NCBI GenBank assembly: GCA_031416075.1
Contig: JANOSY010000045.1
Location: 48,131 to 112,130 of the forward strand
DNA: 64,000 nt
From: Candidatus Tenderia sp.
Lineage (GTDB): Bacteria; Pseudomonadota; Gammaproteobacteria; Tenderiales; Tenderiaceae
Direction: 5' to 3'
The notes below the pieces were generated by a model. That model was not told the DNA's origin and did not search any database. It saw only the letters and a program-made list of their open reading frames with translations. This document shows positions 20,877 to 46,704 of the stretch, one piece after another. Position 1 is the first letter of the stretch; every line of letters begins with the position of its first letter. The position numbers and the translations under genes were made by a program.

Positions 20877-20904
20877 AGAGCCTGCCCCACGCAGTGCTTT
20901 GGGC
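20877..20904 (+). repeat. 28-bp micro-element copy 1, inside a GTAG-type hairpin
   Basis: AGAGCCTGCCCCACGCAGTGCTTTGGGC; removal restores CGTAGGGTGGG-TATT-TCCGCTCTACG. Confidence 0.75.
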
Positions 20905-20980
20905 ATTTCCGCTCTACGCCTGCTAACCGTGCGTAACTTTGAATCACACCCTCCGCTCGAGGAGTTATTTTGATTCCGTG

Positions 20981-21640
20981 TTATGGAGCAGAGTCATCCG
21001 CCTGCGACTGAAATTTGTGCTGTTCCATCCGGTCGCGGTAAAGCTCAGCGATTGATTCAATTTCGACTCGTTTGAGCTGGGTCACAGGCTCACGCTGTAG
21101 CAAGGCATCCCAGACCCCTTTCCCTTCGTACTGCTGAATCAACTCCTGCGCTGTCTTGTAGAGCGCCTGGTTATCCTTGACGCATTGATTCAGGGTATCG
21201 CCCTTCTGCCCCGTAGATGCCTCAAGTGTGGCGACATGCTCCTCTGACTTGCGCAGTTCGGCGACCAGCTCTTTGTATTTCTCCACCACCTTTTGCAGAC
21301 GCTCCTGAGTCTCGGTGAGCTTCTCTGCCGTGGCCACTCCGCTCTCCTGGGCACGATCCGTAGCACGGGCGCTTTCACCCTGTTGCGCCTTGAGGCGGGT
21401 GATCTCCCGCGTGCTCTCTGTCAATTTCCCTTTTACATCACCCAGCTCTTTTATCTGGCGCTCATTATCTGCCGTCAGCTGCTCCTGTTTGGTTCGCATG
21501 GCATCACGTTCAGCAGTGATCTGTTGCAACAGCGCCGCATTGCCGCCATCTCCACCGCCACGGCGCACCGATTCTGCTGCAACTTGCTGCACAGGCAACA
21601 ATGCAACCAGCATGAAGATCACTGCATGTATCTGCTTCAT
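20981..21640 (-). CDS. Secreted coiled-coil protein, last gene of ExbBD-TonB-porin operon
   Basis: Signal peptide, long heptad region, C-terminal C..N..LY...LLQREPVTQLKRVEIE; GGAGGT RBS before MKQIH. Confidence 0.7.
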   Translation of the reverse strand: MKQIHAVIFMLVALLPVQQVAAESVRRGGGDGGNAALLQQITAERDAMRTKQEQLTADNERQIKELGDVKGKLTESTREITRLKAQQGESARATDRAQESGVATAEKLTETQERLQKVVEKYKELVAELRKSEEHVATLEASTGQKGDTLNQCVKDNQALYKTAQELIQQYEGKGVWDALLQREPVTQLKRVEIESIAELYRDRMEQHKFQSQADDSAP

Positions 21641-21663
21641 TTCGATCACCTCCAAAATTGATC

Positions 21664-23313
21664 CTAGAACTTCACATTGAGATCGAGCTGCACAACATCA
21701 ATCCCCAGTGGCGGACCATCAATCGCGTCCGCACTCAGCCAGCGGAAATTGAAGGCGGTGTTATCCATCAGGCCATACTCAACCCCCATGATCCACCCCT
21801 CGGCATCGGTACCGCCAAGATGGAAGTCGGAGTCGGTGAAGGCATCCACCACCGCATCACGCTCCAGCCGTTTGAAGGCAGCGGTGATACGCCAGTCATC
21901 TGCTTTAGTGATCTGCGGCCAACCCACCGCCAGCTGTACCTGATAGCCCTGGGTGCGGGCCTTCTCCGTATAACCGGTGAGGGCGGAGACCTCATCCTCC
22001 TTGAAGCCATTGTTCCTGACGTAATCACCCGTCAGCACCACATGGACGGGAGCAAAACTTGCCAGATCGGCGCGTAGTGTCAGGTTGATTTCGTTATAGT
22101 CCGAGGCCAGCGCCCAGCGGTCAGTGGCCGCATCGGTATCGTTGCGGATATCGAAGAGTGTATTGCCCTTCTGCATGAACTCTGGCGCCGTGAAGTCATT
22201 CAATTTGCTGTCCAGCGTGTTGCGTTCACCGACGATGTTACGGAAATCGTAATAGGCCAGCGCCACGGTGAAACTGGACTGATTGTCACTGGTCCACTGC
22301 CCGCCAAGCTGCGCACCGAGCAGCCATTTGTCGCGTGATGAGAGTTCAGTCTCTTGCAACGGAAAGGCACCCAGCGTCAAGAACAACGTCTGATCAGCAT
22401 TGGCGAGATCGGAGAGACCATCCTCCTCACCCAATCTGAGCCGGTAAGTGGTCGCCACCCCTTCGAAGTTGAGATCACCATCCCAGACCAGGTCGGTCGA
22501 GACCCACGGATTGGGTATACGCCCGCCCCACACCGTCATGCGATTGAAACCATCGAAATCGTACATGTTGTAACGCAGATAGGCCTGTTCCAGCAGCATG
22601 GTGTAGGGGCGGCCAGAGTTGCCGAGGGTCTGGTTGGTGGAGACCGGGTCGCCACTGTTACCCGTCGCCAGCCGCGTGCCAACCAGTACCTGGTCATTGA
22701 CCTTGGCATCGATGCCAAGCCGCAGACGCATCCGCTCGCGATGGCGACCCTCGGTGGTGTTCAGAAATGGATTGTCGCTCTTACCATAACCACCGGCGCG
22801 ATTGAGCTCAGAGAAATTGACATAGGTCTGCGCCGGATTGTCATCGGCAAAGAGATCGGACTGATGGCGCAGACGCAGATCACCCTTGATCTTGACGTTC
22901 TCCACCCACTCCGGCAGCACACCGGGGATACCCCAGCGCTCCTGCTGCGCCTGCCCCTTGATGTCATTAACCACATCCTCACGCAGGCCGAAACGCACCT
23001 CATCACGAATCGCATTTTTTACCGCCTCGGGCACGTAGGGCACACGCAACGTATCAGGCGACTGCGGCGCGGGCAGCTCACGTGGCGCAGATGATTGTGG
23101 TTGCAGCTGTTTTATCAGCAGATCGCCCTGCTCGGTGCTGATGACCCCCTGTTTAATCAGGGCGCTGATCAGCTCACTCACCGTCTGTTGCAGTGGCGGC
23201 TGAGCTGAAACTGGAGTTGAAGAGGCTACCTCTTCGGCACTCACCTGGAGTGCTGCCGCCACTGCGGCCACGCCAAAAACTGCAACAAGGTTCTTCGGTT
23301 TAAAGGTTTTCAT
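21664..23313 (-). CDS. Putative porin (Porin_5-like outer-membrane beta-barrel)
   Basis: LIKQGVIS, VPYVPEAVK, GDLRLR, RERMRLRLG, STNQTLG, FTDSDFHLGGTDAEG, terminal QLDLNVKF. Confidence 0.85.
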   Translation of the reverse strand: MKTFKPKNLVAVFGVAAVAAALQVSAEEVASSTPVSAQPPLQQTVSELISALIKQGVISTEQGDLLIKQLQPQSSAPRELPAPQSPDTLRVPYVPEAVKNAIRDEVRFGLREDVVNDIKGQAQQERWGIPGVLPEWVENVKIKGDLRLRHQSDLFADDNPAQTYVNFSELNRAGGYGKSDNPFLNTTEGRHRERMRLRLGIDAKVNDQVLVGTRLATGNSGDPVSTNQTLGNSGRPYTMLLEQAYLRYNMYDFDGFNRMTVWGGRIPNPWVSTDLVWDGDLNFEGVATTYRLRLGEEDGLSDLANADQTLFLTLGAFPLQETELSSRDKWLLGAQLGGQWTSDNQSSFTVALAYYDFRNIVGERNTLDSKLNDFTAPEFMQKGNTLFDIRNDTDAATDRWALASDYNEINLTLRADLASFAPVHVVLTGDYVRNNGFKEDEVSALTGYTEKARTQGYQVQLAVGWPQITKADDWRITAAFKRLERDAVVDAFTDSDFHLGGTDAEGWIMGVEYGLMDNTAFNFRWLSADAIDGPPLGIDVVQLDLNVKF

Positions 23314-23367
23314 CTTTTCTCTTAATCCAACTTCTCTTTGAAGAGTGTTAAATAAATGTCACAACGT

Positions 23368-24036
23368 TCAGCCACGCGAACTCAGCCGCAGACGCACCGG
23401 CTGCGGCGTCCCTTCGGGCGGCGGTGAGACACGATCCAGTCCGGTCAATACCGCGCTGATCATCTCGCGCGATGAATCTCCCGAAACATTCTCCACCTGA
23501 TAACGTTCAACCCGGCCACTGGCATCGATCCAGAGCGTGAGATCAACGCTGTAGCGTTTGTTCTTACGCAGCTCTTTGTAGCCGTTGAAAAACTCGGTCA
23601 GATCCTGATCCAGCCGCCGTGTATACCAGCCGAAGCGTGCATCACCGCCGCCGCCGCCAATCAGGCCACGGCCACCCTTGCGCCCCACCAGGCCAAAACC
23701 ATCACCACCAGCGCCGCCATCGGCATCGAGTCCGAGATCATCACCGGCAGGCGCATCATCGGCGGGCTGATCCTGTGGCGCATCGGGTTGCGGTTCGGGA
23801 TCGGGTTGCGGCGTCTCCACCTTCTGCTCCGGCTCCGGCGGCGGCTCCTCCTGCTTGGGTGGCGGCGGCGGTGGCGGTGGTGTAATCAGGGTGATCTGTT
23901 GTGTCTTGAGCCTCGGTGGTGTCACCGTCTCCGACAGGGTCTGCTTGAGCCAGATGAGCAGCGCAATCACCACAACCACCGCCACAGTAATGGCGGCGGC
24001 AGGCAACAGACGCAGATAACGGATATTGGCAGTCAT
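23368..24036 (-). CDS. tonB: TonB-like energy transducer
   Basis: N-terminal TM, poly-Pro linker, C-terminal TonB-like domain (LWIDASGRV...PPPEGTPQPVRLRL). Confidence 0.8.
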   Translation of the reverse strand: MTANIRYLRLLPAAAITVAVVVVIALLIWLKQTLSETVTPPRLKTQQITLITPPPPPPPPKQEEPPPEPEQKVETPQPDPEPQPDAPQDQPADDAPAGDDLGLDADGGAGGDGFGLVGRKGGRGLIGGGGGDARFGWYTRRLDQDLTEFFNGYKELRKNKRYSVDLTLWIDASGRVERYQVENVSGDSSREMISAVLTGLDRVSPPPEGTPQPVRLRLSSRG

Positions 24037-24057
24037 GATGATGAGTGTGGCCCGGTG

Positions 24058-24462
24058 CTACTTCACAAGCTTCTGCGTCACCAGCCCCAGCTGGGTGATC
24101 TCCAGCCTGCCCAGCAGGTCCAGCACATCTACCACATGCTGATACTGCACAGCGCCATCGGCCTTGACCACCACCGGCAGTTCGGGATTACCGGCCTTGA
24201 GCTGACGCAACTGCGCCTCCAGTTCCGGCAATGTCACTGGAGAGGTATCGAGATAGATAGTCCCTTCCGGCGTGATCGTGATCGCCTTGGTCTGTGGTTT
24301 GGCAAGACTCGGGGTTGAACTCGCCGTGGGCAGATTGACCTTGATCCCCTGCACCGTCGCCGTAGCCATGATGATAAAGATAACCAGCAGCACATACGCC
24401 AGATCGAGCATCGCCGTAACATTGATGTCGTCGTAAGGTTTGTTCTCGCCCTGAATCTGCAT
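24058..24462 (-). CDS. exbD: Biopolymer transporter ExbD
   Basis: INVTAMLDLAYVLLVIFII, VNLP, KADGAVQYQHVVDVLD. Confidence 0.92.
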   Translation of the reverse strand: MQIQGENKPYDDINVTAMLDLAYVLLVIFIIMATATVQGIKVNLPTASSTPSLAKPQTKAITITPEGTIYLDTSPVTLPELEAQLRQLKAGNPELPVVVKADGAVQYQHVVDVLDLLGRLEITQLGLVTQKLVK

Positions 24463-24465
24463 CGC

Positions 24466-26214
24466 TTAACTCCCGTGATGTTCAGCAATTTTGCCGATGA
24501 ACTCATCGACAAAGACCTGCATCTCGGCAATAGAATCACGCACACGCGCACCGAGATAGTTGTAACCAAACAGCGCCGGGATGGCAACGACCAGACCGGC
24601 AACCGTAGCTACCAGCGCAGCGGCGATGCCGGGGGCGATGGCATTGATGTTGATATCACCACTGGCGGCGATGGCGGCGAAGGTGATCATGACCCCCACC
24701 ACCGTACCGAGCAGACCGAGGAACGGGCCACCACTGACGGCGATGGTCAGCAACACCATCTGGGCATTGAGCTTCTGGCACTCACGCACCAGGGTGGCAT
24801 CCAGTGCTGCACGGATCGCAACGACCGCCTGCGGCGAGAGACTATTGGCGCTGGCGCCAACCGAACGGCCGACACGCTGATTCAACTCCTGAATCCCGGT
24901 GTGATAGATGTGATAGAGCGGTGAACTCTGATAGTGATCATGCTTGCCAAACAGCGCCATCAGGAACGGTGTGTTCTCCAGCTGCTGGTCAGCATCACTG
25001 ACGCTACTGTCGAGCGCACCGGGATTGTCGAGCCCGAGTTTGCGAAAATCCTTAATAAAATTCCGATTGTCGCGGCCCACACGGCTCAGCAGGAAACCCT
25101 TGCCGATCATGATCAGCCAGCTGATCACCGCCATGATCATCAATATGCCGATCACCACCCAGCCATCGAACGTCACGTTCTGCAGAATCACGCCGAAGTA
25201 GGAGGCACTCTCCTCGCCATCCGCACTCTCCTGCGCCTCATCTTCGCCCAGCGTCAGCAAGGTAGCGGCAGAGCCCTGACCGGCGGCCGCAAAACGCAAC
25301 CACTCGGCGCTGCGCACAGTGGCCGCCACCTGCACCTCATCCATCTCGCCCTTGAAGCCCGAACCGATGATCAATGGCTCATTCAGCGGCGCAAGGTTAG
25401 CAGCGATGCTGCCAGATTCCAGACCATCCACATAGAGCACCACACGGCCAGCAGCGGCAGTCACTGCGAGATGGTGCCAGCTGCCCGGCACAAGCTCTGT
25501 TGCAACTGCGCTTTTTGTAGCGCCGTAACTGACATAAGGTGATGCGCCATCAATACCTAATTTCAAAGCAGAGCCAAGCTGCATGACATTGGCTTTGCTC
25601 TGCGCGCCATCAAGCTTCACCCAGCTGGAGAAACTCCACCCCTTGGCCGGATCGAGCGCCAGCGTGGCACTGGGGCCAGCCTGAATCAGACTGCTGCCAT
25701 CGAATTTAGCACCGGCACCGATCAGCGCCGTCACCGGCTGCGCCGTAAACTGTTGCGGCTGATTGGCATAAGCAGTGGCATCAACAGGCGTGCCCTGCGG
25801 CTCGAAGTGATAGACCAGCGCCTGCTGCGCATCGTAACTGCCCGCCACATCAGCAGCAGAGGCAGCCGCCTTCGGATTGCCGTAATAGAGCCACAACGTA
25901 TCGCCTTTTTTAGCACTGGGCAGCTGCACCCAGAGCATCGCCATCTGGTTGGCAACATCAAATTTTTCGATATGGAATTTTAGCTCGCTCTTGTCATCCC
26001 CAGCAACAAGACGCAGATCAGAACCATCAGGCTTCACATCGGAGAAGTAAGTGAAGTTGCCGGTGTGCAGACGCACCAGCAACGGCGCCGCCTGAACCTC
26101 ATCGGTGGTGTTGATCGTCAACTTCTTACGATACTGCCACTCCTCATTCCACCAGGCCTGAGAGACAGCAGGCAGCAACATCAGTGCTGCTGCAAACAAT
26201 GCGCGAATATTCAT
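24466..26214 (-). CDS. exbB: DUF2341 + LamG-like + MotA/TolQ/ExbB proton-channel fusion
   Basis: WWNEEWQYRKKLTI, DGSDLRLV, YYGNP (DUF2341); WHHLAVT...LYVDG (LamG); GGPFLGLLGTVVGVMITF, APGIAAALVATVAGLVVAIPA (ExbB). Confidence 0.92.
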   Translation of the reverse strand: MNIRALFAAALMLLPAVSQAWWNEEWQYRKKLTINTTDEVQAAPLLVRLHTGNFTYFSDVKPDGSDLRLVAGDDKSELKFHIEKFDVANQMAMLWVQLPSAKKGDTLWLYYGNPKAAASAADVAGSYDAQQALVYHFEPQGTPVDATAYANQPQQFTAQPVTALIGAGAKFDGSSLIQAGPSATLALDPAKGWSFSSWVKLDGAQSKANVMQLGSALKLGIDGASPYVSYGATKSAVATELVPGSWHHLAVTAAAGRVVLYVDGLESGSIAANLAPLNEPLIIGSGFKGEMDEVQVAATVRSAEWLRFAAAGQGSAATLLTLGEDEAQESADGEESASYFGVILQNVTFDGWVVIGILMIMAVISWLIMIGKGFLLSRVGRDNRNFIKDFRKLGLDNPGALDSSVSDADQQLENTPFLMALFGKHDHYQSSPLYHIYHTGIQELNQRVGRSVGASANSLSPQAVVAIRAALDATLVRECQKLNAQMVLLTIAVSGGPFLGLLGTVVGVMITFAAIAASGDININAIAPGIAAALVATVAGLVVAIPALFGYNYLGARVRDSIAEMQVFVDEFIGKIAEHHGS

Positions 26215-26250
26215 GTCAGTGATCTTTCCGGGGTTAACTGAAACGCGGCC

Positions 26251-26284
26251 ATTGTGCCTGCCCTATATTTCATCCCGGTTACGG
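26251..26284 (-). promoter_or_regulatory. Pho-box-like repeat plus -10 upstream of exbB
   Basis: Minus strand CCGTAAC-CGGG-ATGAAAT-N10-CACAAT. Confidence 0.5.
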
Positions 26285-26503
26285 AATGGGACATTATTTG
26301 CTGTTTTTTATTACAAAAATGAGTTTTTTGATTTGGTGGTTATCAGATGGATAAGACCGGAGAGCTGTCGTTGGATTAATCCTTTACCAGATTCGTTATA
26401 ATTCTTGGATTCAACCAATAAGTGCATAACTTGAACAGAGCAGAAGAAAAGGTCAGTCACCTGTAATCTGATCGTTTTTTCTCCGGCAAGAGATGCGACG
26501 AAT

Positions 26504-27497
26504 ATGAGCTACGAGCAACTGACCTACGAACAACGATGTCAGAGAGCCTGCCCCACGAAGTGCCTTGGGTATTTATGTGCTAAAGAAAAGCGATATGAGT
26601 CAACAATATATTGCTGACACTATTGGTGTTAGTCAGCCAACAATTAGTCGAGAGCTCAGACGCAATACTGGTGATCGCGGCTATCGTTTCAAACAAGCCC
26701 AAAAAATGAGCGAAGACCGCCGAATGCAAGCGATTAAGGCCCTCAAAATTACGCCTGAGATGATTCATCTTGTTGAATCAAAACTGCGGCTGGAGTGGAG
26801 TCCAGAACAAATATCGGGTTGGCTGCTGGAAGAGCGGGAAAAAATGCTTAGCCACGAAACAATTTACTTGCATATCTGGGCAGACAAGGCCTCTGGTGGC
26901 GACTTGTTTAGCTTGCTTCGCCGCAAAGGCAAAGCCTACCAGCCCCGCAGTAAAGACCAGGCAGGACGCGGCCATATAAAGAATCGCGTCAGCATTGATG
27001 AGCGCCCAACAATTGTTGATGGAACGGGGCGTGTGGGTGATTGGGAGATCGATTTTGTGATTGGTAAAGGTCACAGTGGCGCTCTGGTGACCATTGTTGA
27101 GCGTGTAACAAGTTTCACCGTATCAAGGCGCATTAATGATAAATCAGCACATACGGTGACCATGGCAACGATCGCCTTGTTAACGCCCTTCAAAGACATG
27201 GTATTAACCATCACCGCCGATAATGGCAAAGAGTTCGCATACCATGAGCTGATAACTCAGGCGCTGGGTGCACAGGTCTACTTCGCCGACCCTTACAGTT
27301 ATTGGCAGCGTGGATTGAATGAAAACACCAATGGCCTTTTACGACAATACTGGCCGAAAAGCACGGGCTTCAAAAAAGTCTCGGCGAATGATGTGTCTGC
27401 GGTTATCATTGAACTTAACGATTGGCCAAGAAAAAAACTAGGGTATAAAACGCCGGCTAAATTAGTGGCTGAACATATGGCTGCAATTGCAGCTTAG
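26504..27497 (+). pseudogene. IS30 transposase, frameshifted by a 28-bp insertion after codon 13
   Basis: MSYEQLTYEQRCQ (from 26504) joins IYVLKKS... in frame only if 26543-26570 is removed; GDWEID, ITADNGKEF, RGLNENTNGLLRQY. Confidence 0.85.
26543..26570 (+). repeat. 28-bp micro-element copy 2, inside IS30 transposase
   Basis: AGAGCCTGCCCCACGAAGTGCCTTGGGT, 25/28 identical to copy 1. Confidence 0.8.
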
Positions 27498-27553
27498 GTG
27501 GTTATGCACTTCGGGGTTGAATCTGCCATTTAATTCAATACCCCGACATGCGC

Positions 27554-27982
27554 TTAACGTAGCTCGACATTTTTTATTACGCCATAGGAGACACTGCCAC
27601 CGTTACTGGATACGACATCGTCACTACGAATAAATAGTTTTCCTTTTGAAAAATAGGCCATCATGATCATTGCGGCGTATTTAGAGCTGATACCCACGCC
27701 CTCTACACCGGGCAAGATCAGTGCTGTGGGTTGGGTCACGTTTAATAGTCCGTATTGCATCGACCTGGTCGGCGAACAACCACTATTTTCGTCAACAGTG
27801 ATACGCATCATTTTCGTTTTTGGCAACGCTGACGAATAGATGCCGGTACTATTATCGAGAAGTTCCGGGGAAGGCGGCGTGGCAAGCATACACTCAACTG
27901 CAAATAGCTTGCTAGACAACAGACTAAGCACGGCAATAGCGGCTATATTTAAACAAACATTCTTTTCATTTTTTTTCATCAT
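27554..27982 (-). CDS. Small secreted hypothetical protein
   Basis: Signal peptide, Cys pair, C-terminal KYAAMIMMAYFSKGKLFIR...IKNVELR similar to upstream neighbour. Confidence 0.65.
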   Translation of the reverse strand: MMKKNEKNVCLNIAAIAVLSLLSSKLFAVECMLATPPSPELLDNSTGIYSSALPKTKMMRITVDENSGCSPTRSMQYGLLNVTQPTALILPGVEGVGISSKYAAMIMMAYFSKGKLFIRSDDVVSSNGGSVSYGVIKNVELR

Positions 27983-28005
27983 GGCATCCTAATCATGGCG
28001 TTTTC

Positions 28006-28491: not shown

Positions 28492-28539
28492 TGGCTCCGT
28501 CCTATATTAATATGATTAATAATCTACTCTCTGCCACCG

Positions 28540-40600: not shown

Positions 40601-41890
40601 CAGTTCCGTGCTGGTTGTACCGCCAACATCGATCAGGGTTCCCGATTCCATGATCACACGACTGCCGTTCCTCTCGGTATTGGCTACAGCGGCATCGCCA
40701 GGATTCGCTGTCGCTGTCAAATTCACATTGCCACCTGGCACCACAAGCTGCGCCCTCTCGCTCAGCAGAATCTCCTTCGCCACCACGTCCACCTGCGAAA
40801 GCGCCTGCTTCTGCTGATCCACAGCGGTGGCTCTATCATCCAGTTCCGGCAACACCTCAGTGCGGCTCCCCGCACCAAACGTTACCCGAGCTGCCTGACC
40901 ATCTCGCTCAGTGGATATCCCTTTCAATACATATTTATTTGTATCGAGCGTAGGTTCCCCCTGCGCATGAGCAATCAGACGGATCGAACCATTATTGTTG
41001 ACCGTGGTGGTTGCGGAGACGAGCCCATCCTGATTGACAGCAAATCCCATCATGGTGATATTGCCGCGCTTGGCCAAGATCTCACCCAGGTTGCGTACAT
41101 CGCCACCGGTCCCCACCTCCACCAGCAGACCGCGCAGATTTGGATCGTCGGATCGCTGCAACCAGACCTTGTCCTGGCTGGCGGCAAGAATCGTCTGCCC
41201 GTCAGGTGTTTCGATTTTGCCGCTATTTTCGATCACCGGCGCCAGGATCATGATACGGCCACCATCGACACTGCGCAGCTCGGCACCGGTCTCGATCCGG
41301 ACCGACCCCATCGGCCCCTCGGCAACGAAGGCGGCCTTCCCCTGATTCACCTCCTGCAAAATACCGGTATCAGTGAAAACATTGTCGTCGATGTTCAAGG
41401 TCGACACTGTCAGTGAATTCACATCAACCCTAGCCCCCGGACCAAACAGCATGCCGTTGCGATTGATGAGAAAGACCTGGCCGTTGGCGCTCAACGCCCC
41501 CTGGATGTTGCTGGGATCGGCCTGATAGATCCGGTTCAGCGCCACCGACCCGGCATCAGGCTGGTTGAACTGCACCTTGTTACCGGCGCTGATGTTGAAG
41601 CTCTGCCAGTTGAGGATCGCCTTGTCGCTCTGCTGATTCACATAAAGCGTGCTGCCGTTGCTTGCCAGTGAAGCCTGGCCGGAGCTGATCCAGCCATTGG
41701 CGCCGCCCATGGTCGAACAGCCGGTGGTGCAGGGGATTGGCAGTTCAGAACGCACCGGCAGATCGGCGCGCGCCGGAGTTGCCGCAACAAGCGCCCCGCC
41801 CAGCGTCAACAATCGGATATAGAGACCTAAACCACGCAACACCGCATTTAAGTTTTTGACTCTCTTGCGACCTAATCTCAATCCAAACAT
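31685..41890 (-). CDS. TpsA filamentous hemagglutinin-family exoprotein with C-terminal DUF3739-like domain (PdtA-like)
   Basis: TPS domain (QQSDKAILNWQSFNI, ALNRI, ANGQVFLINRNG), beta-helix repeats, internal YLLLPARYALLPGAY, C-terminal IVIWSQHGNIDAGRGAKS...GSGI...APRGVVNASDAGI...EVEVLGFG. Confidence 0.92.
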   Translation of the reverse strand: MFGLRLGRKRVKNLNAVLRGLGLYIRLLTLGGALVAATPARADLPVRSELPIPCTTGCSTMGGANGWISSGQASLASNGSTLYVNQQSDKAILNWQSFNISAGNKVQFNQPDAGSVALNRIYQADPSNIQGALSANGQVFLINRNGMLFGPGARVDVNSLTVSTLNIDDNVFTDTGILQEVNQGKAAFVAEGPMGSVRIETGAELRSVDGGRIMILAPVIENSGKIETPDGQTILAASQDKVWLQRSDDPNLRGLLVEVGTGGDVRNLGEILAKRGNITMMGFAVNQDGLVSATTTVNNNGSIRLIAHAQGEPTLDTNKYVLKGISTERDGQAARVTFGAGSRTEVLPELDDRATAVDQQKQALSQVDVVAKEILLSERAQLVVPGGNVNLTATANPGDAAVANTERNGSRVIMESGTLIDVGGTTSTELAMDRNEIQLELFSNELKDSPLQRDGVLRGKKVIIDIRKEIPIADISGELAKIKRDVGERLAVGGTVNVASEGDFVMAPESKVDISGGKVNYDAGWMNTTKLVSDSKIYDISDADPNLIYDGVLGEYTRTDAKWGMKQAWTIAGPVAQGYYEDKYTEGRSAGTFNVTSSALRLEGDVLAGVTYGNYQRNPKRSPELGTLNLDLVKLGQGGLKYDPATVKFAHASAEAYDPETALDPSKSITIDPRLLQEGGVGRLILNHNGSVDIPEGTTINLPAGGEFKVSGSGVSIDGSITVPAGRVSLATIQTKDVVNRPITMGERSYIDVSGVWVNDYSLTNVIPGTEPLLINGGAVALNAQGDLKLASGSVIEADGGAFVDAKGKLSAGNGGDISLLSRVSLEAGAEMELGGDIHAYAAGKGGTLSIETNTLRIGQSGSDLPGELLRTPEFFQQGGFSSYTLTSNLGGIIVAADTVVQPRASTLMLEGDYLRRATGSDISEFSSAVMLPDDRRRPVDLSLNLSQTAAFNFTPAHFEIEAGARIEADSGAKLSLSSDHGVDINGVLSAPAGEIDLQVSLPKTIFPEDIYYHPELAIHLGSQARLLAQGVVELMPNTLDLNMGEVLSGGQINVTADNGYIVTDVGSLLDVSGTAAELLVRSQGSAINGTLQTIASNAGAIRLTAAEGMVLSGTLTGHAGGSGAVGGELSVALDALKRGNPLLTPPQPYLDFPTGPRVITLAAQGVALPAKWKPGTALPGTMNGQAVVSANAVEDGGFDSLTLRASDMVLNRDGARISGQINLDHVNIDLKRSVVFDAPLLNNVGGDSRIAAAYVALADSGAADAVQPESNGADGQLEIEAQHIDLIGNVTLQGWQQASLNSEGDIRMRGLLPLGNGNEWRGSLNSFGNLELSAAQLYPSTLTQYSIEVTRSDGNLSVLPVAAADPAPVLSAGSNLIMKADNIYQGGVVKAPFGDIQMIAADTLVLAKGSLTSTSASGETIPFGRTENGLDWIYPVADRGQRVFGQNSTLPAQNLSLQAPSVVQQAGATIDVSGGGDLYAYQFVAGPGGSHDVLDPKNSDNTYAVLPWLRGYGPYDPLEFGGTDIKPGDSIHLAAGSGLAEGDYLLLPARYALLPGAYLVTKQAGTQDFGSDLAVRQTDSSILVGGYRTVAGTDIRESRWSGYTVAPGAIARTRSEYQDSFANDFIARHAIAAKQPVPLLPQDAGRVAISVTDELQLDGELRANADHGRGARVDLEAEKLTIVSQRGADDGTVQVTVANLNSLGAESILLGGHRMESGDAVELVTTATKVTVKSGAQITVPELLLAASDETKVESGTKLVASGKGAAAGVNYTLHGDGALLQISAGAPLKAQRIDAQGVKGDLLIDVGATLGAAQSMFLESSHDTVMSGTLDMHGGNLSLGAKHISLGDAPVGTSGLVLTQEQLSSLQMDQLTLNSRETVDLYGNVNLNMKQLTLAAAGLVGHGTEATTASIVADILELKNVASTSDSTATDAAHLDVTTDDLLLGAGEFKIDGFASADISARRQVRVAGTVDRSNDGDKTLNVDGDLRLRTAVITAESGSDSAISARGKLEVLALASPQKVEPAGLGARLSFEGSDVTFGTSVQLPSGDLRLKANKGDVHLIAGAAIDVSGRIEQFSDMTVATPAGAITLHSVDGDVILDSGATILLKGVAGADAGTLNVSAASGELILKGSVDAHDENGADQGIVKLDLGSVADFSTLNRKLNESGFGGERKLRQRHGDLIIAEDDSVNARQVRFSADDGAIEIHGHINSAAEKGGEIVLQAKDDVHLYGTTRIDARATGSDEAGGHVILATTDGVIAVDAENEADASVIDVSGTRSGEDAALQYVGGKVEIRAPRVGAGVAVSSLDGTIRGAESIAVQAFRSYEATEVDSALQNQIFADTKIYMTHAADIATNLNMAGDSRFHLQPGVDIYSAGDLTVSKAWDFAARDKTAGKKQIWRFNSEPGMLMLRAAGKLNFDAGLSDGIETGIIRATASNGSGPVKNNSVNGRLLDSASWSYQLTGGSDLGSADMGAVVKGEGGVVLAEGVQVRTGSGNISVASGGVLNFSGEGSSIFSAGQSGGYGTLPLSWVPGIFTGVYPVRGGEVNLQIAGDILSADSTQFINDWLFRMGNFGSDGNLPTAWSVNFKDKSNNDMFKQNIAAFGGGDVTIDAGGSIKQLSVVAPGTGQPQGTPANGSFSAGFLDNEVRFLGGGNLNVKAGGDINGGTFYVDGGAGRLRSGGALNLDDSGVGAILALGRGRYDVLARNGMNIETVLNPTALPPSSKQAQSRGQLQSFFFTYGPDSGIKLDSLAGDITLRNETSALTDGYPGISFQGDESTAVTVYPGDLEVSALRGSIYIDKSFKLFPSPHGSLSLLADEDIKTETNEAVAIKMSDTDLELLPSIANPAKTFADAATRLDGSSSVLAHKDDGAPVNIVARKGSIESAGGGQSILIFELPKQASIVAGQDIRDLQLHLQNLTDEDVTLLQAGRDIMFSSRRDADGSLITNASAGIELAGPGELNLVAGRDVDLGTSEGVVAIGNTRNLLLTETGANVTVEAGISKALDYVAYLTHYAQLDGNSRSEVATAMRRVTGNQEISDNNVFAALDSLSQEAQRKIALMHFYGGLSQSAREAATGGNGAGYQRGYDAIATLFGDGMYKGDVRLYFSRIHTVDGGDINMVVPGGLINAGLAATNGFHKEPSELGIVAQRSGDVNIYLDKDMLVNQSRVFALDGGDIVIWSQHGNIDAGRGAKSAIAAPPPIITFDETGKMKLEFPAAIAGSGIRTAVSTKGREPGSTTLAAPRGVVNASDAGIDSAGALVVAATAVLGAGNISAGGESVGVPSIEPPSVPAGLANAGNSASNASSGGEDLAAAAKSTTPLADSALAFLEVEVLGFGGASTAGVAGAMSPSDVAAGDDENKKSREQGKGSRLAKESDDVLPKAAEGEKPAGRVATTHAQ

Positions 41891-41926
41891 GGCAAGCTCC
41901 TCTCCACTGCGCGTGCTGTAAGCACT

Positions 41927-43510
41927 TTAGAATTCATAACGGGTGTTGAAATGAAAACGCGCATCACTGCGCTTGATGCTGCCCGCATCTTCCAGAGGCG
42001 AGGCCCAGTCGAGGGCGACAATAATATTTTTGGCGGCCACCAGCCGGGCACCGACGCCCGCGCTGGCCAGATGCTGTCTGGCTGTTTCAGAGGGAAGCGG
42101 ATCCTGGCGCTTCAACCAGGCGCTGTCGGCAAACAGCAGCAGTTGCAAATCGTTGAGCCACGGCCAGCTGGCCGGGAGCAACGGCGGGCTGCGCAGCTCC
42201 AGGTTGGCCAGCAGCGCATCGTCACCCATCGCCTGCGATTCGGGATAACCGCGCACCGTGTCGACGCCACCGGCATTGAACTGTTCGTTACTGATCAAGG
42301 GTGAATCACTCAGCTGCGCGCCCAGATGGAGACGCCAGGTGCTCTTCATGAAGCCCGCGTGCAGCCGTTCGACATCGACATTTAAATGGCTGAAATTGGC
42401 CTTGGCATTAAACCGTTTGTTGCGGAACTCCTCCTCACTGTTGCCGAAGATGCGCAGACCAAACGAGCCACCCAGCGAATAACTGGTCGAGCCCTGCCCA
42501 TCCTGCTGACGGCGGTTGAATTTCGCCTGGCCGACGGCATAACTGATCGGTGTCGAAATACCGTTGCCATCGGGCAGCAGCACCTCCTGGCGTTGATCCT
42601 TGTATTGAACCCCGAGCGAGAGTCCCTGGCTCACCCGTTTCACCGCCGGTAACTGCCGCTGCCAGGTGACGCCATAGATATCACCGTTGCCGAGCACGCC
42701 CAGAGTACCGAGCGCCGCCGAGTGACTCACCGAGTGCACGGCGGAAAAATTCCAGCGCGCCTGCTCCACCGGGATGGAGTAACCCAGCACCCAGACCCGC
42801 ACCTCTTCCCACTGCTGCGGCGAGGCCTGATAGTTCAGCGATGCAGTGTGATGGCGCTGCCACAGATTGGCGTAACTCAGCCCCGCCTCCATGCGCAGAT
42901 GAGAACTACCGAGCGTGTAGCGGTCATTGAAACCGAGGCTGCCATGCAGCGGCGAGTGATCCTCGACCTTCAGTTCAGCCTCCATCGTGCCGGGCTCGAT
43001 ACCGGGGCGAAATACAGGATTGAGGGTGCGGTCCGGCGCCACGGCGCTGGCCGCCGCCAGCTGCGCTTGTAGTGTCGGCAGATGCAAAGGAGAGCCCGGT
43101 TGCAGTGCCGGAATCTCATCACGCAGATCGCGCGGTGAAAAATAGCGTGCGCCGGTGACGCGGAAACGTTCGATCTTGCTCTCAACCACCTGCAGGCGGA
43201 TCACACCATCGTTCGCCTCCTGCTCAGGAATGTTCACCAGCACGGCGGCATAACCTGCATCACGATAGGCCTGCTCCAGATCACGCTTCGCTGCCTCGAC
43301 ATCGGCCAGGCTTTTGTTACTGCCCAGAAATGGGTAGACCACATTTTCCACCGAGGCGCGCGGCAACAGCGTCGCCCCCTCCACCTGAAACTCCCAGACA
43401 TCAAAACGTGGCTCAGCCGCTGCTGGCGGCACCTCGTTCGCCTGCACAGCACCGCACCAACACACCAGCACCACCACAACAGAACGCTTCATTGCAGATC
43501 CAAAACTCAT
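41927..43510 (-). CDS. TpsB (ShlB/FhaC/HecB) outer-membrane transporter
   Basis: POTRA (FDVWEFQVEGATLL, YRDAGY), YANLWQRHH, EQFNAGGVDTVRGY; start uncertain (43510 or 43492). Confidence 0.92.
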   Translation of the reverse strand: MSFGSAMKRSVVVVLVCWCGAVQANEVPPAAAEPRFDVWEFQVEGATLLPRASVENVVYPFLGSNKSLADVEAAKRDLEQAYRDAGYAAVLVNIPEQEANDGVIRLQVVESKIERFRVTGARYFSPRDLRDEIPALQPGSPLHLPTLQAQLAAASAVAPDRTLNPVFRPGIEPGTMEAELKVEDHSPLHGSLGFNDRYTLGSSHLRMEAGLSYANLWQRHHTASLNYQASPQQWEEVRVWVLGYSIPVEQARWNFSAVHSVSHSAALGTLGVLGNGDIYGVTWQRQLPAVKRVSQGLSLGVQYKDQRQEVLLPDGNGISTPISYAVGQAKFNRRQQDGQGSTSYSLGGSFGLRIFGNSEEEFRNKRFNAKANFSHLNVDVERLHAGFMKSTWRLHLGAQLSDSPLISNEQFNAGGVDTVRGYPESQAMGDDALLANLELRSPPLLPASWPWLNDLQLLLFADSAWLKRQDPLPSETARQHLASAGVGARLVAAKNIIVALDWASPLEDAGSIKRSDARFHFNTRYEF

Positions 43511-43588
43511 GTGAAATCCAACCTCGACACAATTCACAGACGGCCTGAAAAAAATCAGCACAGACCCAGTAAAAACCTCAAGACGGGC

Positions 43589-43633
43589 ATTATGCGCGAC
43601 ACGTATTACATGGCAGTTACATCTCTGTTACAC
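43589..43633 (-). promoter_or_regulatory. Triple Pho-box-like repeat plus -10 upstream of tpsB
   Basis: Minus strand GTGTAAC-AGAG-ATGTAAC-TGCC-ATGTAAT-N10-CATAAT. Confidence 0.75.
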
Positions 43634-43783
43634 AAAAAAGAGGGGGGCTGATTCAGACCAACAGCGGAGCTGTTAAATTCAGCATGGAATAGGAGACAAG
43701 AAGCATCATTCTGGCAAAGTTCCAGTCTTCACCGCGATGAGCAGAGGAGGCAATGGCAAATGAAGTTGAGGACACCTGAAAAT

Positions 43784-43816
43784 AAAAAAGCAGCGGCGCC
43801 ACAAGTGCGCCGCTGC
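43784..43816 (-). terminator. Rho-independent terminator of 43836..45260
   Basis: Minus strand GCAGCGGCGC-ACTTGTG-GCGCCGCTGC-TTTTTT, 20 nt after stop. Confidence 0.88.
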
Positions 43817-43835
43817 CAGTTACAGTCTCAGAAAA

Positions 43836-45260
43836 TTACAGTTGAGACTCTACGTTGTTGATTGCAGGTACGGCACAGTTGTTCACCTTGCCACCCTGGA
43901 TCGCGTGGCTGCCTTGGGCAACCGGACCCGTTGCATCGGTCACCAGATAGCCGTTGGTGTTCAGGGACATATAACCGCCCTTACCAAAGCTGTGGTTGAA
44001 GCTGGCATTGATGGTGTTAATGATCGAGGGCTTGCCGGACTGCTTGGCGAGCGCGCTCAGGATCGTTGGAACGCGGCTATCGGAATAACTAACAGTCTTA
44101 CGCCACTGCATGGTCTCTTCCGCCCAGTCAAAGTACTTGTTGCTCTTGGCATTGTCCACAGTCGGAGCTACGCCATCAACCTTGATGAAACGGTAGTTCT
44201 TGGCATGAGTTGCATTCTTTTCGGTGGACTGAATACCGATAGCCCAGTTGCCCGCAACCTCTTCATTGTTCATACAGGTCTCAACATCACCCGAGCCCTC
44301 GCCCTGAGTCACGATCGGACCGAAGTCGACATCGCTATCCGCAGCGGCTACCAGTCCCCCGGCGACACAAGGGTTGGCCAGGAATTTGGCCTGGAACTGA
44401 GCCTGGGTGCCAGAACCTGGCACACGGCGGCAGATGTGCACAAAGCTGTCAGCAGGTGCGGTCACACCGGGAACAGCAGTCAAAGCAGTCGTCAGACCGC
44501 CCACCTTCAACTGGGTCCAGTCGGTCATGCCACCTACAGCCATCAGGCCAGCGATCTGCTGTTTGCTCAGGCTCGGCATATGAGCATCAGTAAAATCACC
44601 GACAGTCTTATTTTGAGCCCGCTGCAATGCCGCGTACAGCTTGTCATTCACGATCACACCGAACACGCCACCACGAGTGGAGACAACATTCGGGAGATTA
44701 TCGAGCACAGTTTTGGATACGGCTGAAAAACCGGCAGGGACGTTCGGACCAACAAACAGTGCTGGCTCTACGTCTGACATGCCGCCATCCGGGCCGGTCG
44801 CATTGGTCTGGAAGTTGGAGGTCTCGTCGTAGCCGCAGTTGTACTTGTTGGTGCCAGCAGAAGTACAGTTACCGCTGCTGACGCCCATGAACTTGACGCT
44901 GGCATCAGCCATGGCGACCGGAGCTACACCCCACCCTGAACCACCCTTCGAGCGCTTGAAGATCAGCACTTTGGTATCGGCAGCCAGGCCGGTGATCTTG
45001 GTCTTGTCAAGGGTACAGGAGAAAGCGGTCTGCCAAGAACCAGCGCTGGAACCACTGGCCACGCCGTTGTCAGAATAGGTATCCAAGGTGTCCTTGCACA
45101 GCTGGGGCATCAGCAATTGCAGACCTTTGTCCTGGGCACTGGCACCAGAGATGTAGATCTTGAGCGCACCGGTAGCTGCATCAGCAGGGGCAAAGGCATG
45201 GGCCTGACCGACAACCAGGCCAGTAGCAGCCATGGCGAGTACGATAGATTTTAATTTCAT
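43836..45260 (-). CDS. Secreted PstS/DING-like (PBP2 superfamily) protein, Cys-rich
   Basis: Signal peptide; ISGASAQ, GGSGWGV, GGMSDV, CRRVPGSGTQ, WAIG, VKVDGVAPT-like (IKVDGVAPT) parallel PstS-family motifs. Confidence 0.6.
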   Translation of the reverse strand: MKLKSIVLAMAATGLVVGQAHAFAPADAATGALKIYISGASAQDKGLQLLMPQLCKDTLDTYSDNGVASGSSAGSWQTAFSCTLDKTKITGLAADTKVLIFKRSKGGSGWGVAPVAMADASVKFMGVSSGNCTSAGTNKYNCGYDETSNFQTNATGPDGGMSDVEPALFVGPNVPAGFSAVSKTVLDNLPNVVSTRGGVFGVIVNDKLYAALQRAQNKTVGDFTDAHMPSLSKQQIAGLMAVGGMTDWTQLKVGGLTTALTAVPGVTAPADSFVHICRRVPGSGTQAQFQAKFLANPCVAGGLVAAADSDVDFGPIVTQGEGSGDVETCMNNEEVAGNWAIGIQSTEKNATHAKNYRFIKVDGVAPTVDNAKSNKYFDWAEETMQWRKTVSYSDSRVPTILSALAKQSGKPSIINTINASFNHSFGKGGYMSLNTNGYLVTDATGPVAQGSHAIQGGKVNNCAVPAINNVESQL

Positions 45261-45348
45261 GATAATTCTCCGGTTAAGGTAATTTAAAAACCCGATAACA
45301 CTAAAATGGTGAGCAGCAAAAATGGCTGCTCTCTGCCCTCATCCAAGC

Positions 45349-45381
45349 CCCCCTCTCTCCCTCAGAGAGGGAGAGAGGGGG
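45349..45381. repeat. Perfect 15-bp pyrimidine/purine hairpin (boxC-like)
   Basis: CCCCCTCTCTCCCTC-AGA-GAGGGAGAGAGGGGG; second small hairpin GAGCAGC...GCTGCTC at 45311-45331. Confidence 0.7.
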
Positions 45382-45412
45382 TAATGTAGCAATTTCTCAG
45401 CTAACGGTAGAG

Positions 45413-46285
45413 TTAGACTGACAGGACTTCATCCTGCTGGCGGCGGCGGGCAACACCCACCAGACCGGCCAAGGCGGAACCGAGCAGCAGTACTGCTGGG
45501 GGCAGCGGTACCGGGGGAGCAGAGGCGACGTCATAGCTCAGGGCGCCATTGGCGGTCAGAGCCCATGTTCCGGCAAACAGATCGGTGTAAGTACCTGCGG
45601 GGGAGGTCAGCTTATTGGTAGCCGGGTCATACTTTGCACCGATATGATAGAAGGCCAGGCTCGTGCCTACTGCGGCCTCGTCATTAAAAGTCAACGACCT
45701 GCCAATGTCGCTTGACCAGGTAATAGCATTGCCGTAATAACCATCGTCAGTCGAAGACGTATTCGTGGTGCTACGGTTCTGGGCATAAGCATTCAGGGCG
45801 TCACCAAACTGGACGTTGGCATCACTGTTAGCACCGGCGATATAGCTATTAGCCTGCAACATAGACGACTTGAGATTGGTGTAGCTCATGCTGGACACAG
45901 CGCTGGAAGCATCATTGGAAGTGGCATACAGGCCGTACTTGGCCACGTCTGCGCCAGGTTTGTCTGTACGCACACCCACCAGGTTCCAGACCATGTTGGC
46001 GGAATTGTTATTGCCAAACAGATTGGTGTAAACGCTGTCAGTCGCAAGTTTGGCAGTGAAAGAGCTGTTCCATGAGGAGCTTGAAGAACTGCCTAGACTG
46101 GTAATAAAATCGTCGACGGTGATACCCAGATCGCGGGTATATGATTCTGCGGCAACTGAATCGTATACGGACAGAAACAATTCGCCTGCGCCCTGGCCAG
46201 ACTGCCCTGGGTTGATCGCGGCATTGGCACCACCAGCGGCCACCATGGCCAGTGCGGCAACTACCGCTTTTATTTTGAATTTCAT
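45413..46285 (-). CDS. VPLPA-CTERM sorting domain protein
   Basis: Signal peptide; GELFLSVYD...SYTRDLG; C-terminal PVPLPPAVLLLGSALAGLVGVARRR. Confidence 0.92.
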   Translation of the reverse strand: MKFKIKAVVAALAMVAAGGANAAINPGQSGQGAGELFLSVYDSVAAESYTRDLGITVDDFITSLGSSSSSSWNSSFTAKLATDSVYTNLFGNNNSANMVWNLVGVRTDKPGADVAKYGLYATSNDASSAVSSMSYTNLKSSMLQANSYIAGANSDANVQFGDALNAYAQNRSTTNTSSTDDGYYGNAITWSSDIGRSLTFNDEAAVGTSLAFYHIGAKYDPATNKLTSPAGTYTDLFAGTWALTANGALSYDVASAPPVPLPPAVLLLGSALAGLVGVARRRQQDEVLSV

Positions 46286-46393
46286 TGCTAGACTCCTGTT
46301 TATTTAGGTTATGGCTTGCGCCGTTTTGTTTCCCAGCCCTCCTCTTTGTTGGCAACCCACTGCCGCCAACAAGCCGAGCCAGAATGTCTAAAC

Positions 46394-46487
46394 AACGGTG
46401 GTAACCCAGCCATCTTGGCGCTTCCATGTTCACACCTAGATCTGTGGCTTTCCGACCCCGCCTCGCAACGGGAGTGGCAGTTCCGTC
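46394..46487 (-). ncRNA. Cyclic di-GMP-I (GEMM) riboswitch in the leader of the VPLPA/PstS-like operon
   Basis: Minus strand GACGG-AACT-GCCACT-CCCGTT-GCGA-GGCGGG-GTCGGAAAGCCACAGATCT...AGATGGCTGGGTTACC-A-CCGTT: P1, GNRA-capped P2 and P3 as in the Vc2 aptamer. Confidence 0.8.
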
Positions 46488-46573
46488 TTACTGTCACCAA
46501 CTACGTGGCACCTCATGCACCCCGATATGCCGGACCTCATATCCGGCTGCCTGAATTTCCAGCGGCGACGGCA

Positions 46574-46618
46574 ATTGTTGACCAACAAGATTTCGCCGTG
46601 ATTAATGCAATGTTAATT
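46574..46618 (-). promoter_or_regulatory. Degenerate Pho-box-like array plus weak -10 upstream of riboswitch
   Basis: Minus strand AATTAAC-ATTG-CATTAAT-CACG-GCGAAAT-N10-AACAAT. Confidence 0.4.
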
Positions 46619-46676
46619 TTTTATATCAATGGGGAACTTATAAGGAGGGGGATAAACACGGAGTTATATGCAGTGT

Positions 46677-46704
46677 GCCCAAAGCACTACGTGGGGCAGG
46701 CTCT
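46677..46704 (-). repeat. 28-bp micro-element copy 3, inside a GTAG-type REP
   Basis: Minus strand AGAGCCTGCCCCACGTAGTGCTTTGGGC; removal restores GCAGTGTGGGTAAGCG-TTTTTT-GCGTAACCCACC. Confidence 0.78.

Follow-up and report, generated by a model that had tools for sequence, protein, structure and literature searches.

A 28-nucleotide hairpin element inserted repeatedly into palindromic repeats, transposase genes and its own copies in Candidatus Tenderia and other Gammaproteobacteria

Results

Three copies of a 28-nt element in the window

The stretch of DNA studied here (the window; 64,000 nucleotides, nt) belongs to contig C45 of the genome of a Candidatus Tenderia sp., which we call G000 (3.49 Mb in 95 contigs), and it carries three copies of a 28-nt element, referred to below as the 28-mer, that lie in a hairpin, in the transposase gene of an insertion sequence (IS) of the IS30 family and, on the minus strand, in a repetitive extragenic palindrome (REP) of the GTAG type (Table 1). 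In what follows, C numbers designate contigs of G000, G001-G004 are four sister species of the same genus and L numbers are fetched loci. The three copies had been noticed in a preliminary description of the window, made from its letters alone, which proposed that they are insertions of a minimal mobile element. The pattern given there matched the window three times with 0 mismatches, compared with 0 matches in 100 dinucleotide shuffles, showing that the copies are exact and that none is expected by chance. Each of them is directly followed on its 3' side by the A that had been described as always next, and they differ where they had been said to differ, namely at the N of the GNA triloop (C, A, T), at a base of the CTTT bulge (T/C, in the IS30 copy) and at the last base (C/T).

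Table 1. Positions in the window of the three 28-mers and of the sequences that hold or accompany them
Feature	Position	Strand	Basis
Empty REP-F hairpin (CCTCCGTTC..GAACGGA)	20807..20843	+	Comparison with filled REP-F copies elsewhere in G000
Copy 1 host hairpin, GTAGGGTGGGT / ATTTCCGCTCTAC	20866..20917	+	Read directly; element between 20876 and 20905
Copy 1 (triloop GCA)	20877..20904	+	Pattern match; A 20905 closes outer stem with T 20883
IS30-family insertion sequence, 1125 bp including the 28-mer	26404..27528	+	Homology to L001 and L002 stops at these ends; rve and HTH_38
First 13 codons of the IS30 transposase (MSYEQLTYEQRCQ), severed by the element	26504..26542	+	Reading frame
Copy 2 (triloop GAA)	26543..26570	+	In the helix-turn-helix (HTH)-coding start of the IS30 transposase gene
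Remaining 308 codons and stop of the IS30 transposase	26571..27497	+	Open (0 stops), +1 shift relative to the start
Copy 3 host, GTAG-type REP	46670..46731	+	Compared with uninterrupted REPs C65:11427, C46:10109 and C17:140908
Copy 3 (triloop GTA)	46677..46704	-	Pattern match

Deletion of copy 1 had been expected to restore a GTAG-type hairpin. What it would leave is a hairpin GTAGGG..CTCTAC, whose 6-bp stem (one G-T pair) is predicted from the bases, and not a typical REP, so that this expectation is weakly confirmed. The closure of the outer stem of copy 1 by the following A is based on the fold of its sister copy 3, which pairs T7-A29 and G8-C28. Copy 3 separates the REP head GCAGTGT from GGGTAAGCG-TTTTTT-GCGTAACCCACC, and comparison with other, uninterrupted G000 copies of the same REP locates the split within the head, GTAG(G/T)GT|GGGT, which places copy 3 inside a GTAG-type REP as proposed. 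The window also holds an empty hairpin of a family that we call REP-F, in which the junction of the filled copies (..CACGA / ACGG..) corresponds to 20838|20839. The intergenic surroundings of sites 1 and 3 could not be aligned between G000 and G001. In public assembled contigs, the related strain X3 retains the 28-mer at site 1, the contigs of X2 stop inside the IS30 copy and X5 has a nested variant.

Constant boundaries and a covarying hairpin

Copies from G000 and from all fetched loci were pooled into a set of 211 distinct copies with 30-nt flanks, which clustering by flank similarity reduced to 96 non-redundant contexts. The element consists of a 27-nt core with an A on either side (A-GAGCC-TGCCC-C(R)C-GNA-G(Y)G-CTTT-GGGY-A). 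Since position 1 is also an A, one A is common to element and target, and the whole reads as a 28-nt insert beside an A, with a pyrimidine next and no further target duplication. These ends were the same in all 84 copies read from named genomes, and the boundaries are constant over the 96 contexts. Among the 211 copies, the 28 positions are near-fixed except for positions 3 (A 179, G 26), 13 (A/G), 16 in the loop (A 166, T 33, C 11), 19 (T/C) and 28 (C/T); the first four positions are A in 202, G in 205, A in 179 and G in 206 copies, an AGAG head being present in at least 179. No terminal inverted repeats were found: one end reads AGAGCC.., the other ..TTTGGGY.

The flanks carry about 3 bits of information, mostly from the A at +1 (90/96 contexts). 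The base at +2 is C or T in 84/96 contexts, T is rare at -1 (7/96), and the remaining flank positions carry little; neither was there any covariation between flank and element beyond noise in these contexts. The preliminary description had suggested counting copies genome-wide and building a flank logo: the outcome is about 30 copies in G000 and a flank signal that is mainly the A at +1.

As a single strand, the element can fold into an outer stem TGCCC/GGGYA and, within it, a mini-hairpin C-R-C/G-Y-G that is capped by a GNA triloop, while 6 nt at the 5' end stay unpaired as a tail. The A at +1 can pair with T7 and Y28 with G8, lengthening the outer stem, and the minimum free energy structure of copy 3 is a bulged hairpin. 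Mini-hairpins of the GCGNAGC type have a known stability, according to a passage in PMC13037366. The pair between element positions 13 and 19 (E13-E19) covaries across the 96 contexts (A-T 45, G-C 44, G-T 6, A-C 1), and it does so independently of the state of position 28, so that it does not simply reflect two clonal lineages. The fold that had been proposed from the window copies is thus supported by covariation, without support from folding energies (see Discussion).

A wide yet patchy distribution

A 24-nt core was searched in G000 at up to 2 mismatches, which gave 21 matches compared with 0 for a reversed control, and more widely at up to 5 substitutions, which gave 32. A search for the core in 41 genomes of relatives was positive in 11, including all 5 genomes of the genus (28, 24, 30, 18 and 50 matches), so that the four sister species each hold 18-50 copies. 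G007 had 9 core matches and five other genomes of the family a few each, while the core was not found in the 24 genomes of other families included in this search. In an even sample of the class, 8/401 genomes were positive.

A scan of named species with the exact core pattern identified at least 122 stretches, spread over many Gammaproteobacteria and a few other bacteria. Judging from record titles, the matches listed include Ectothiorhodospiraceae, Chromatiaceae, Halioglobus, Halieaceae, Cycloclasticus, Kangiellaceae, Amphritea, Zhongshania, Exilibacterium, Porticoccaceae and 'Ca. Tenderia' and, outside those, two Thiobacillus contigs and one metagenome-assembled genome labelled Planctomycetaceae. 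Many of the carriers are marine and sediment bacteria. The distribution is thus wide yet patchy, and the sequence is almost invariant.

Insertion into the start of an IS30 transposase gene

Copy 2 severs the first 13 codons of the IS30 transposase from the other 308, and the HTH_38 match of the latter part begins at profile position 13, directly after the element. The claim that deletion of the 28-mer restores the reading frame was borne out: removing the 28 nt puts positions 26504-26542 in phase with the 308-codon frame at 26571-27494, because 28 leaves a remainder of 1 on division by 3, which is the offset between the two frames. Uninterrupted relatives read ..gatgccag|att.. at the insertion point, and those relatives that take up a whole contig (L009, L048 and L058) measure 1095-1098 bp. 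We fetched 80 IS30 relatives from named genomes, 74 of which contain the N-terminal anchor; 72 of these 74 are uninterrupted at ..GATGCCAG|AT.., and the only filled ones, L001 and L002, both come from the genus of the window. L001 and the window have only the IS in common (96.5% identity), with different flanks.

In G000, all four IS30 N-termini (on C45, C2, C20 and C70) are filled after the same ..RYQ codon, with inserts of 28, 26, 29 and 28 nt, respectively, and these four copies represent three subfamilies with 37-45% amino acid identity. IS30 copies of G001 and G004 are filled as well, G004 having three filled fragments, two of them with one element nested in another, and G002 and G003 have empty fragments. 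The comparison with other IS30 copies that had been proposed as a check therefore provided no empty site in G000 (4/4 filled), while it did provide empty sites elsewhere. That every G000 copy is filled does not refute mobility, because these copies belong to three subfamilies and 72/74 relatives elsewhere are empty.

Three filled IS30 copies with open 308-codon frames have ratios of nonsynonymous to synonymous divergence (dN/dS) of 0.17-0.26, compared with 0.05 for an empty pair at similar synonymous divergence (dS), and the 28-mers of the window and of L002 differ at 2/28 positions where dS is 0.36. Further stops or truncations are found in the filled IS30 copies on C2 and C70 and also in the filled loci L200 and L201. 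As an observation on the host gene, the 27 nt that precede the hot spot (window 26516-26542; ..QLTYEQRCQ) are almost invariant as DNA, synonymous sites included, from L003 to L080, relatives with 57-76% protein identity, which hints that this stretch may have a function at the nucleic acid level.

Insertion into REPs, other hairpins and the element itself

The 28-mer is also found within its own copies, as double nests (L002/L083 and L100), triple nests (L142 and L140) and tandems (L147-L149). Every self-insertion precedes an A of the host copy, at CCCC^ACG, GCG^AAG or GGGY^AGAG (^ marks the insertion point). Apparent partial copies consisting of a right half were considered as 5' truncations and rejected as such, since most turned out to be the right parts of nested hosts.

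GTAG-type REPs from subfamilies that differ in their stems are interrupted at GTAGGGT^. A further insertion point in REPs of this type is AAGCGT^TGCGCAGC, which includes 6/9 copies of G007. About 10 REP-F copies of G000 are split at CACGA^ACGG, with filled rows on C33, C45:15491, C58, C76, C24:156860, C2:16136, C55 and C89, and hairpins with a CGTC tag resembling those of the NTS family are split at CGTC^ATTCC in 7 loci.

Recurring insertion points in other transposase genes

Transposase genes of the IS30, IS6, IS3 and IS110 families, all confirmed by Pfam, are each split at a recurring point, and the splits fall between adjacent profile positions. In IS6, they separate positions 4-26 from 28-98 of the DDE_Tnp_IS240 profile; in IS3, OrfB is split at the C(W/Y)|DNA codon in 5 loci, between the end of rve and the start of rve_2; and in IS110, the split lies between DEDD_Tnp_IS110 and Transposase_20, the two copies L139 and L140 each being empty at the other's site. 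An IS481-like rve_3 gene, a DUF772 (IS5-like) gene and another rve gene are interrupted at least once. In 5/6 host genes checked, the flanking open frames lie 31 nt apart (28 + 3), so that removal of the element rejoins them in phase.

A multi-copy gene with a YVDLNP motif is interrupted too. Its assignment to Y1 subclass 2.3 is made by this motif alone, which a passage in PMC6006769 lists for that subclass, and PF01797 gave no match. With L331:660-1442 (-) and about 45 related places in G042 and G043 (33 and 13 DNA matches per genome), this family includes copies that have a 28-mer in the N-terminal ..HCV|RRAFLC.. codons and others that are 28-37 nt shorter there. From short motifs, we also read IS256-like and IS91-like genes as candidate hosts; Pfam gave nothing for the IS91-like pieces.

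The filled and empty states were compared in a sample of 30 IS6 copies from four genomes, picked by protein similarity and independently of the presence of a 28-mer. This sample has no bias towards intact elements, and it holds a few decayed ones (L368-b with 4 changes and L353-a with 3). At one site (b), 10 copies are filled, 17 are uninterrupted and 3 do not reach it; at another (a), 8 are filled. Six copies are filled at both sites, four at b only and two at a only, all four combinations of states being represented. On a tree of 23 copies (186-nt alignment, with many weak forks; 7 copies whose match does not span codons 2-62 were left out), the two states are scattered among one another, also inside each of the two well-supported clades. 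The elements at site a are of differing subtypes and all 10 at site b are of one subtype. Filled tips have a median branch of 0.195, against 0.13 for empty ones, which is a trend only. Together, these observations point to repeated and fairly recent insertion at the same sites, or to precise loss, followed by decay of the host gene. It is partly shown that invaded transposase genes are switched off, and this as a consequence of insertion rather than as its function.

The same IS6 genes are interrupted by another micro-hairpin, about 16-22 nt long (core CCGGCAYACCGG) and unrelated to the 28-mer, which was seen in two genomes (L200 ~276-297 and L201 ~276-297) and is missing from the L190 copy.

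Genes encoding candidate mobilising enzymes

G000 has 8 Y1_Tnp matches, and genomes of the family each encode several paralogs of REP-associated tyrosine transposases (RAYTs). Around 7 of these 8 Y1 matches, a distance of 5 kb contains no 28-mer, and the eighth has a weak look-alike only. The preliminary description had suggested searching for a RAYT, TnpA or IS110 gene flanked by the same motif. Apart from weak or partial look-alikes, no bare 28-mer borders any Y1 gene in G000, and the link exists in a weaker form: copies of a 36-37-nt long form (head AGAGYCTGCCCCGCGA, tail TTGGGCA) stand, inverted, on either side of the RAYT gene at C87:482-1012. This long form has the same head and tail as the 28-mer plus 8 extra bases in the middle (the G011 version being a 28-mer plus 8 nt), and it was found at C87:421-455 and 1048-1090, on C65 (-) near 13111 and at L161:739-775. 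The long forms are inserted before AT at the loop-arm junction of the RAYT's own GTAG REPs (GTAGGGCGCAAT-type), an empty one of which adjoins at C87. Nested 28-mers were also found in a REP beside a RAYT gene of G001.

Two small GIY-YIG genes are present in G000 (on C17 and C89). The one at C17:139688-139906 (L136 1502-1882) has REP-F hairpins on both sides, two of which carry a 28-mer, and its 3' end runs into a REP-F hairpin. A search for the subclass-2.3-like Y1 gene that serves as a host elsewhere gave, with the query used, no match in G000, G001, G004 or G007. No RVT_1 match was obtained in G000, which is 99.98% complete, while control genomes gave matches. Co-occurrence of the 28-mer with candidate enzymes could not be put to statistics, since the 8 positives among 401 genomes are too few.

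The window itself has an open reading frame (ORF) for a 143-amino-acid IS200-type Y1 transposase at 59365-59796 (-), beside an IS110-like transposase ORF at 58195-58989. No 28-mer flanks this pair (58195-59796), and there is a weak look-alike of the core inside the IS110-like ORF.

Discussion

Considering the 96 flank contexts, the empty sites in paralogous and foreign copies of the hosts (IS30, REP, IS110 and IS6), the self-nests and the tandems, we conclude with high confidence that the 28-mer is a real, precisely bounded and recurrently inserting 28-nt element, and that it is mobile. The idea of a minimal non-autonomous element that hits REPs and other mobile DNA, put forward from the three window copies, is thereby supported.

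As an explanation of the whole, we find it probable, if well short of certain, that the 28-mer is a very small non-autonomous element that takes a single-stranded DNA (ssDNA) route of HUH/RAYT type and spreads as a passenger of insertion sequences; in the single-strand HUH route as such, our confidence is moderate to low. The element would move as ssDNA, and an HUH tyrosine enzyme of the RAYT or IS200 TnpA type, acting in trans, would bind the hairpin, cut and rejoin. T7-G8 at the hairpin foot may pair with the Y-A of the 3' end and thereby pick the cleavage site, much as the guide tetranucleotide of RAYT/IS608 does, and spread between bacteria would occur when an invaded insertion sequence carries the element along. 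The anatomy fits HUH enzymes because there are a hairpin, an unpaired 5' tail, a left site in the flank and a right site that is internal, with no duplication. According to a passage in PMC8266576, RAYTs cleave at CA or CT dinucleotides chosen by 4 nt at the hairpin foot.

Several findings weigh against this explanation. No Y1 gene of G000, and no GIY-YIG gene examined there, is flanked by the bare 28-mer, and no enzyme is tied to the element. None of the four sister species, in which 28-mer copies are most numerous, encodes a close ortholog of the C87 RAYT (best identity 65-66%), so that the RAYT link is suggestive only. The 211 copies lack the GT[AG]G tag that is canonical for RAYT substrates; one hairpin cannot provide the two ends used by IS200/IS605 elements; and immediately left of the element, where a single guide for both cuts would need C or T, only 41/96 contexts have one of these bases. 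In folding energy, the element does not surpass shuffles (z from -0.83 to +0.56), so that the hairpin rests on covariation. The four public DNA runs, taken as assembled contigs only, contained no contig bridging an empty site and gave no direct view of an insertion or excision event. The scan with the exact core pattern favors intact elements, and the copies found in this way are therefore biased. Finally, the natural empty sites of IS30 and IS6 folded into no consistent structure, and about 3 bits of flank information leave the repeated hits at the same codons unexplained.

The fixed-site preference in other mobile DNA is thus not explained by local sequence, and landing at the same codons in unrelated transposase families suggests either a hidden targeting rule or selection for silencing insertion sequences. 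A further reading, which we regard as improbable, is that of an IS-control system, in which a domesticated ssDNA enzyme would plug conserved sites of transposase genes (IS30, IS6, IS3, IS110, IS5-like, rve-type and Y1) and might also remove the plug precisely. If this were true, resident jumping genes would be switched off and perhaps on again, and the targeting rule would go beyond the roughly 3 flank bits and therefore be of a new kind.

Among the alternatives, one would have the 28-mer enter each host only once, long ago, and then multiply with it, its identity being kept by short-patch gene conversion. Such a history would account for the roughly 10 of about 32 G000 copies that sit at one REP-F position, are of the ACGAAGT type and show 1-3 changes each, like an old composite family, and also for the single subtype of all 10 filled IS6 site-b copies, for hot spots within the most conserved host DNA and for a class distribution (8/401 genomes) as patchy as expected for IS cargo. 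It is nevertheless unlikely, considering that the 96 contexts are unrelated, that copies are self-nested and in tandem, that three IS30 subfamilies with 37-45% amino acid identity are filled at one codon with flanks too different for conversion, that the IS6 tree has filled tips paired with empty ones and all four two-site combinations occur, and that long host branches (0.2-0.45 changes per site) bear intact elements. The insert could also be tolerated or even useful, being removed or bypassed so that transposases still work, as an intron-like switch on IS activity. Many interrupted genes are indeed undamaged apart from the insert and would be in phase once rejoined, filled IS30 copies have dN/dS values well under 1 and occupy differing genomic places in G000 and G001, and the 28-mers are more conserved than synonymous sites. 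Against this stand the IS30 insert lengths, which vary (26, 28, 28, 29 and at least 56 when nested), so that no single frameshift or fixed splice fits and the frameshift or bypass reading of the IS30 insert is rejected. The extra stops and truncations of filled copies (C2, C70, L200 and L201), a dN/dS in filled IS30 copies 3-5 times that of the empty pair and the tendency of filled IS6 tips to longer branches also speak against a working product. Rfam gave no match at the three window sites (gathering threshold) or at five foreign loci (E <=1), and hence no ribozyme or intron model; we consider a tolerated insert very unlikely.

Two other routes of movement have to be weighed against the HUH route. 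In break-and-repair homing, an Ssn-like, hairpin-specific GIY-YIG nuclease or a RAYT would nick hairpins and other ssDNA sites, and repair of the break would copy the 28-mer in from another copy instead of cutting and pasting it. This stays a rival because Ssn enzymes bind 28-nt hairpins as ssDNA: SsnA binds a hairpin of about 28 nt only in this form and cuts a few nt upstream, according to passages in PMC11893778. The two small GIY-YIG genes of G000, the position of the C17 gene amid REP-F hairpins of which two carry the 28-mer, and the 7 NTS-like CGTC hosts are in line with it. Homing is rather unlikely all the same, since the junctions are base-exact in 96 contexts that offer no flanking homology to prime copying, since the insertion point CGTC^ATTCC differs from the SsnA cut, which these passages place 3 nt upstream of the motif, and since no bare 28-mer borders the GIY-YIG gene examined in G000, that on C17. 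Transcription followed by copying back into DNA, as proposed for cyanobacterial small dispersed repeats (SDRs), would be consistent with the excess of G-T over A-C intermediates (6 vs 1) expected if G-U pairs are tolerated, and with the apparent 5'-truncated right halves, most of which resolve as nested hosts. However, G-T is tolerated in DNA hairpins too, no Rfam family was matched, and the lack of any RVT_1 match at 99.98% completeness makes an RNA route unlikely in G000; of all the possibilities raised here, we give this one the least credence.

The behavior of the 28-mer resembles that of the cyanobacterial SDRs, being that of a very small dispersed unit found inside its own copies and other repeats, which is a likeness of behavior and not shown descent. 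The SDRs of Nostocaceae (SDR1-8), as reportedly described by Elhai et al. in 2008 (Genome Res 18:1484), are 21-27-nt hairpins with compensatory changes, found as copies within copies and within other repeats, and an RNA route is said to have been proposed for them, their mobiliser being unknown. SDRs are not known to have fixed hot spots in transposase genes. The 28-mer differs from SDRs, which are compared here by description and not by sequence, in belonging to another phylum and in a host genome, G000, in which no reverse transcriptase gene was found. One of these repeats, SDR5, inserts into HIP1, as stated in a passage of PMC5861425.

With the REP/REPIN-RAYT systems, the 28-mer has in common a size class of 20-65 nt, an imperfect bulged palindrome, an unpaired 5' tail and dispersed copies that often lie close by in opposite orientation, and one RAYT gene is flanked by its long form. 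Passages in PMC3733652 and PMC6006769 report REPs inside genes and other palindromes and in-frame REPs inside RAYT genes, respectively. Unlike REPs, the 28-mer has an AGAG head instead of a GT[AG]G or CGTC tag, inserts as single units and not as doublets, has a modest copy number (18-50 per genome), nests in itself and breaks genes out of frame, mostly transposase genes. As it has neither a GTAG/CGTC tag nor a demonstrated partner enzyme, we did not file it as a REP or an SDR.

The NTS/SRM hairpins, which act only as ssDNA and are bound by the Ssn GIY-YIG nucleases (Chenal et al. 2025, in passages of PMC11893778), are similar in their length of about 28 nt, orientation-defining unpaired flank, GC-rich stem and short A-rich loop. 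They differ in having a CGTC tag, another stem and a place beside GIY-YIG genes of the cd10448 kind, and NTS-like hairpins are hosts of the 28-mer; the repeat on either side of the GIY-YIG gene on C17 is REP-F, two copies of which contain the 28-mer as no more than an insert. Like IS200/IS605 elements and their transposase-less derivatives, the palindrome-associated transposable elements (PATEs), as characterized in passages of PMC6006769, the 28-mer inserts by a fixed short target without duplication, with a left cut in the flank and an internal right one, and like IS200/IS605 it has a hairpin with guide bases at its foot. It is several times smaller, however, with one hairpin instead of two ends that each have a subterminal hairpin, and its target is a single A (plus a pyrimidine; about 3 bits) instead of 4-5 nt. 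In contrast to miniature inverted-repeat transposable elements, it has neither terminal inverted repeats nor a target-site duplication, there being one ambiguous A only. A word search of the open-access literature, not including supplements, found neither the 28-mer nor REP-like inserts at fixed transposase codons, nor any out-of-frame inserts at fixed codons of many transposase families.

A length of 28 nt is at the lower size limit of mobile DNA, which places this element among the smallest mobile elements seen. How REP-like hairpins and very small repeats spread is a long-standing question for which clear insertion events are rare, and the 28-mer supplies base-exact boundaries, many filled/empty pairs, self-nesting and hot spots that can be cloned, in carriers that include cultured isolates (L233, Zhongshania guokunii ZS6-22T, and L258, Halioglobus japonicus BC5_1, from record titles). 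Annotation is affected as well, since IS copies that look intact are rendered non-functional by inserts of this kind, and metagenome assemblies break at them, as public contigs ended inside the element. The silencing of IS copies is to be seen as a consequence, and any biological role beyond that stays a proposal.

Other features of the window and the genome

Overlapping 14-mers that each occur 27 times in G000 imply that a further repeat, longer than 100 nt, is present about 27 times, and a 36-copy motif and hexamer tandem repeats were also seen. In the window, a c-di-GMP-I riboswitch aptamer (RF01051) was identified at 46397-46488 (-) by a full-length model match of 48.5 bits, about 190 nt from copy 3.

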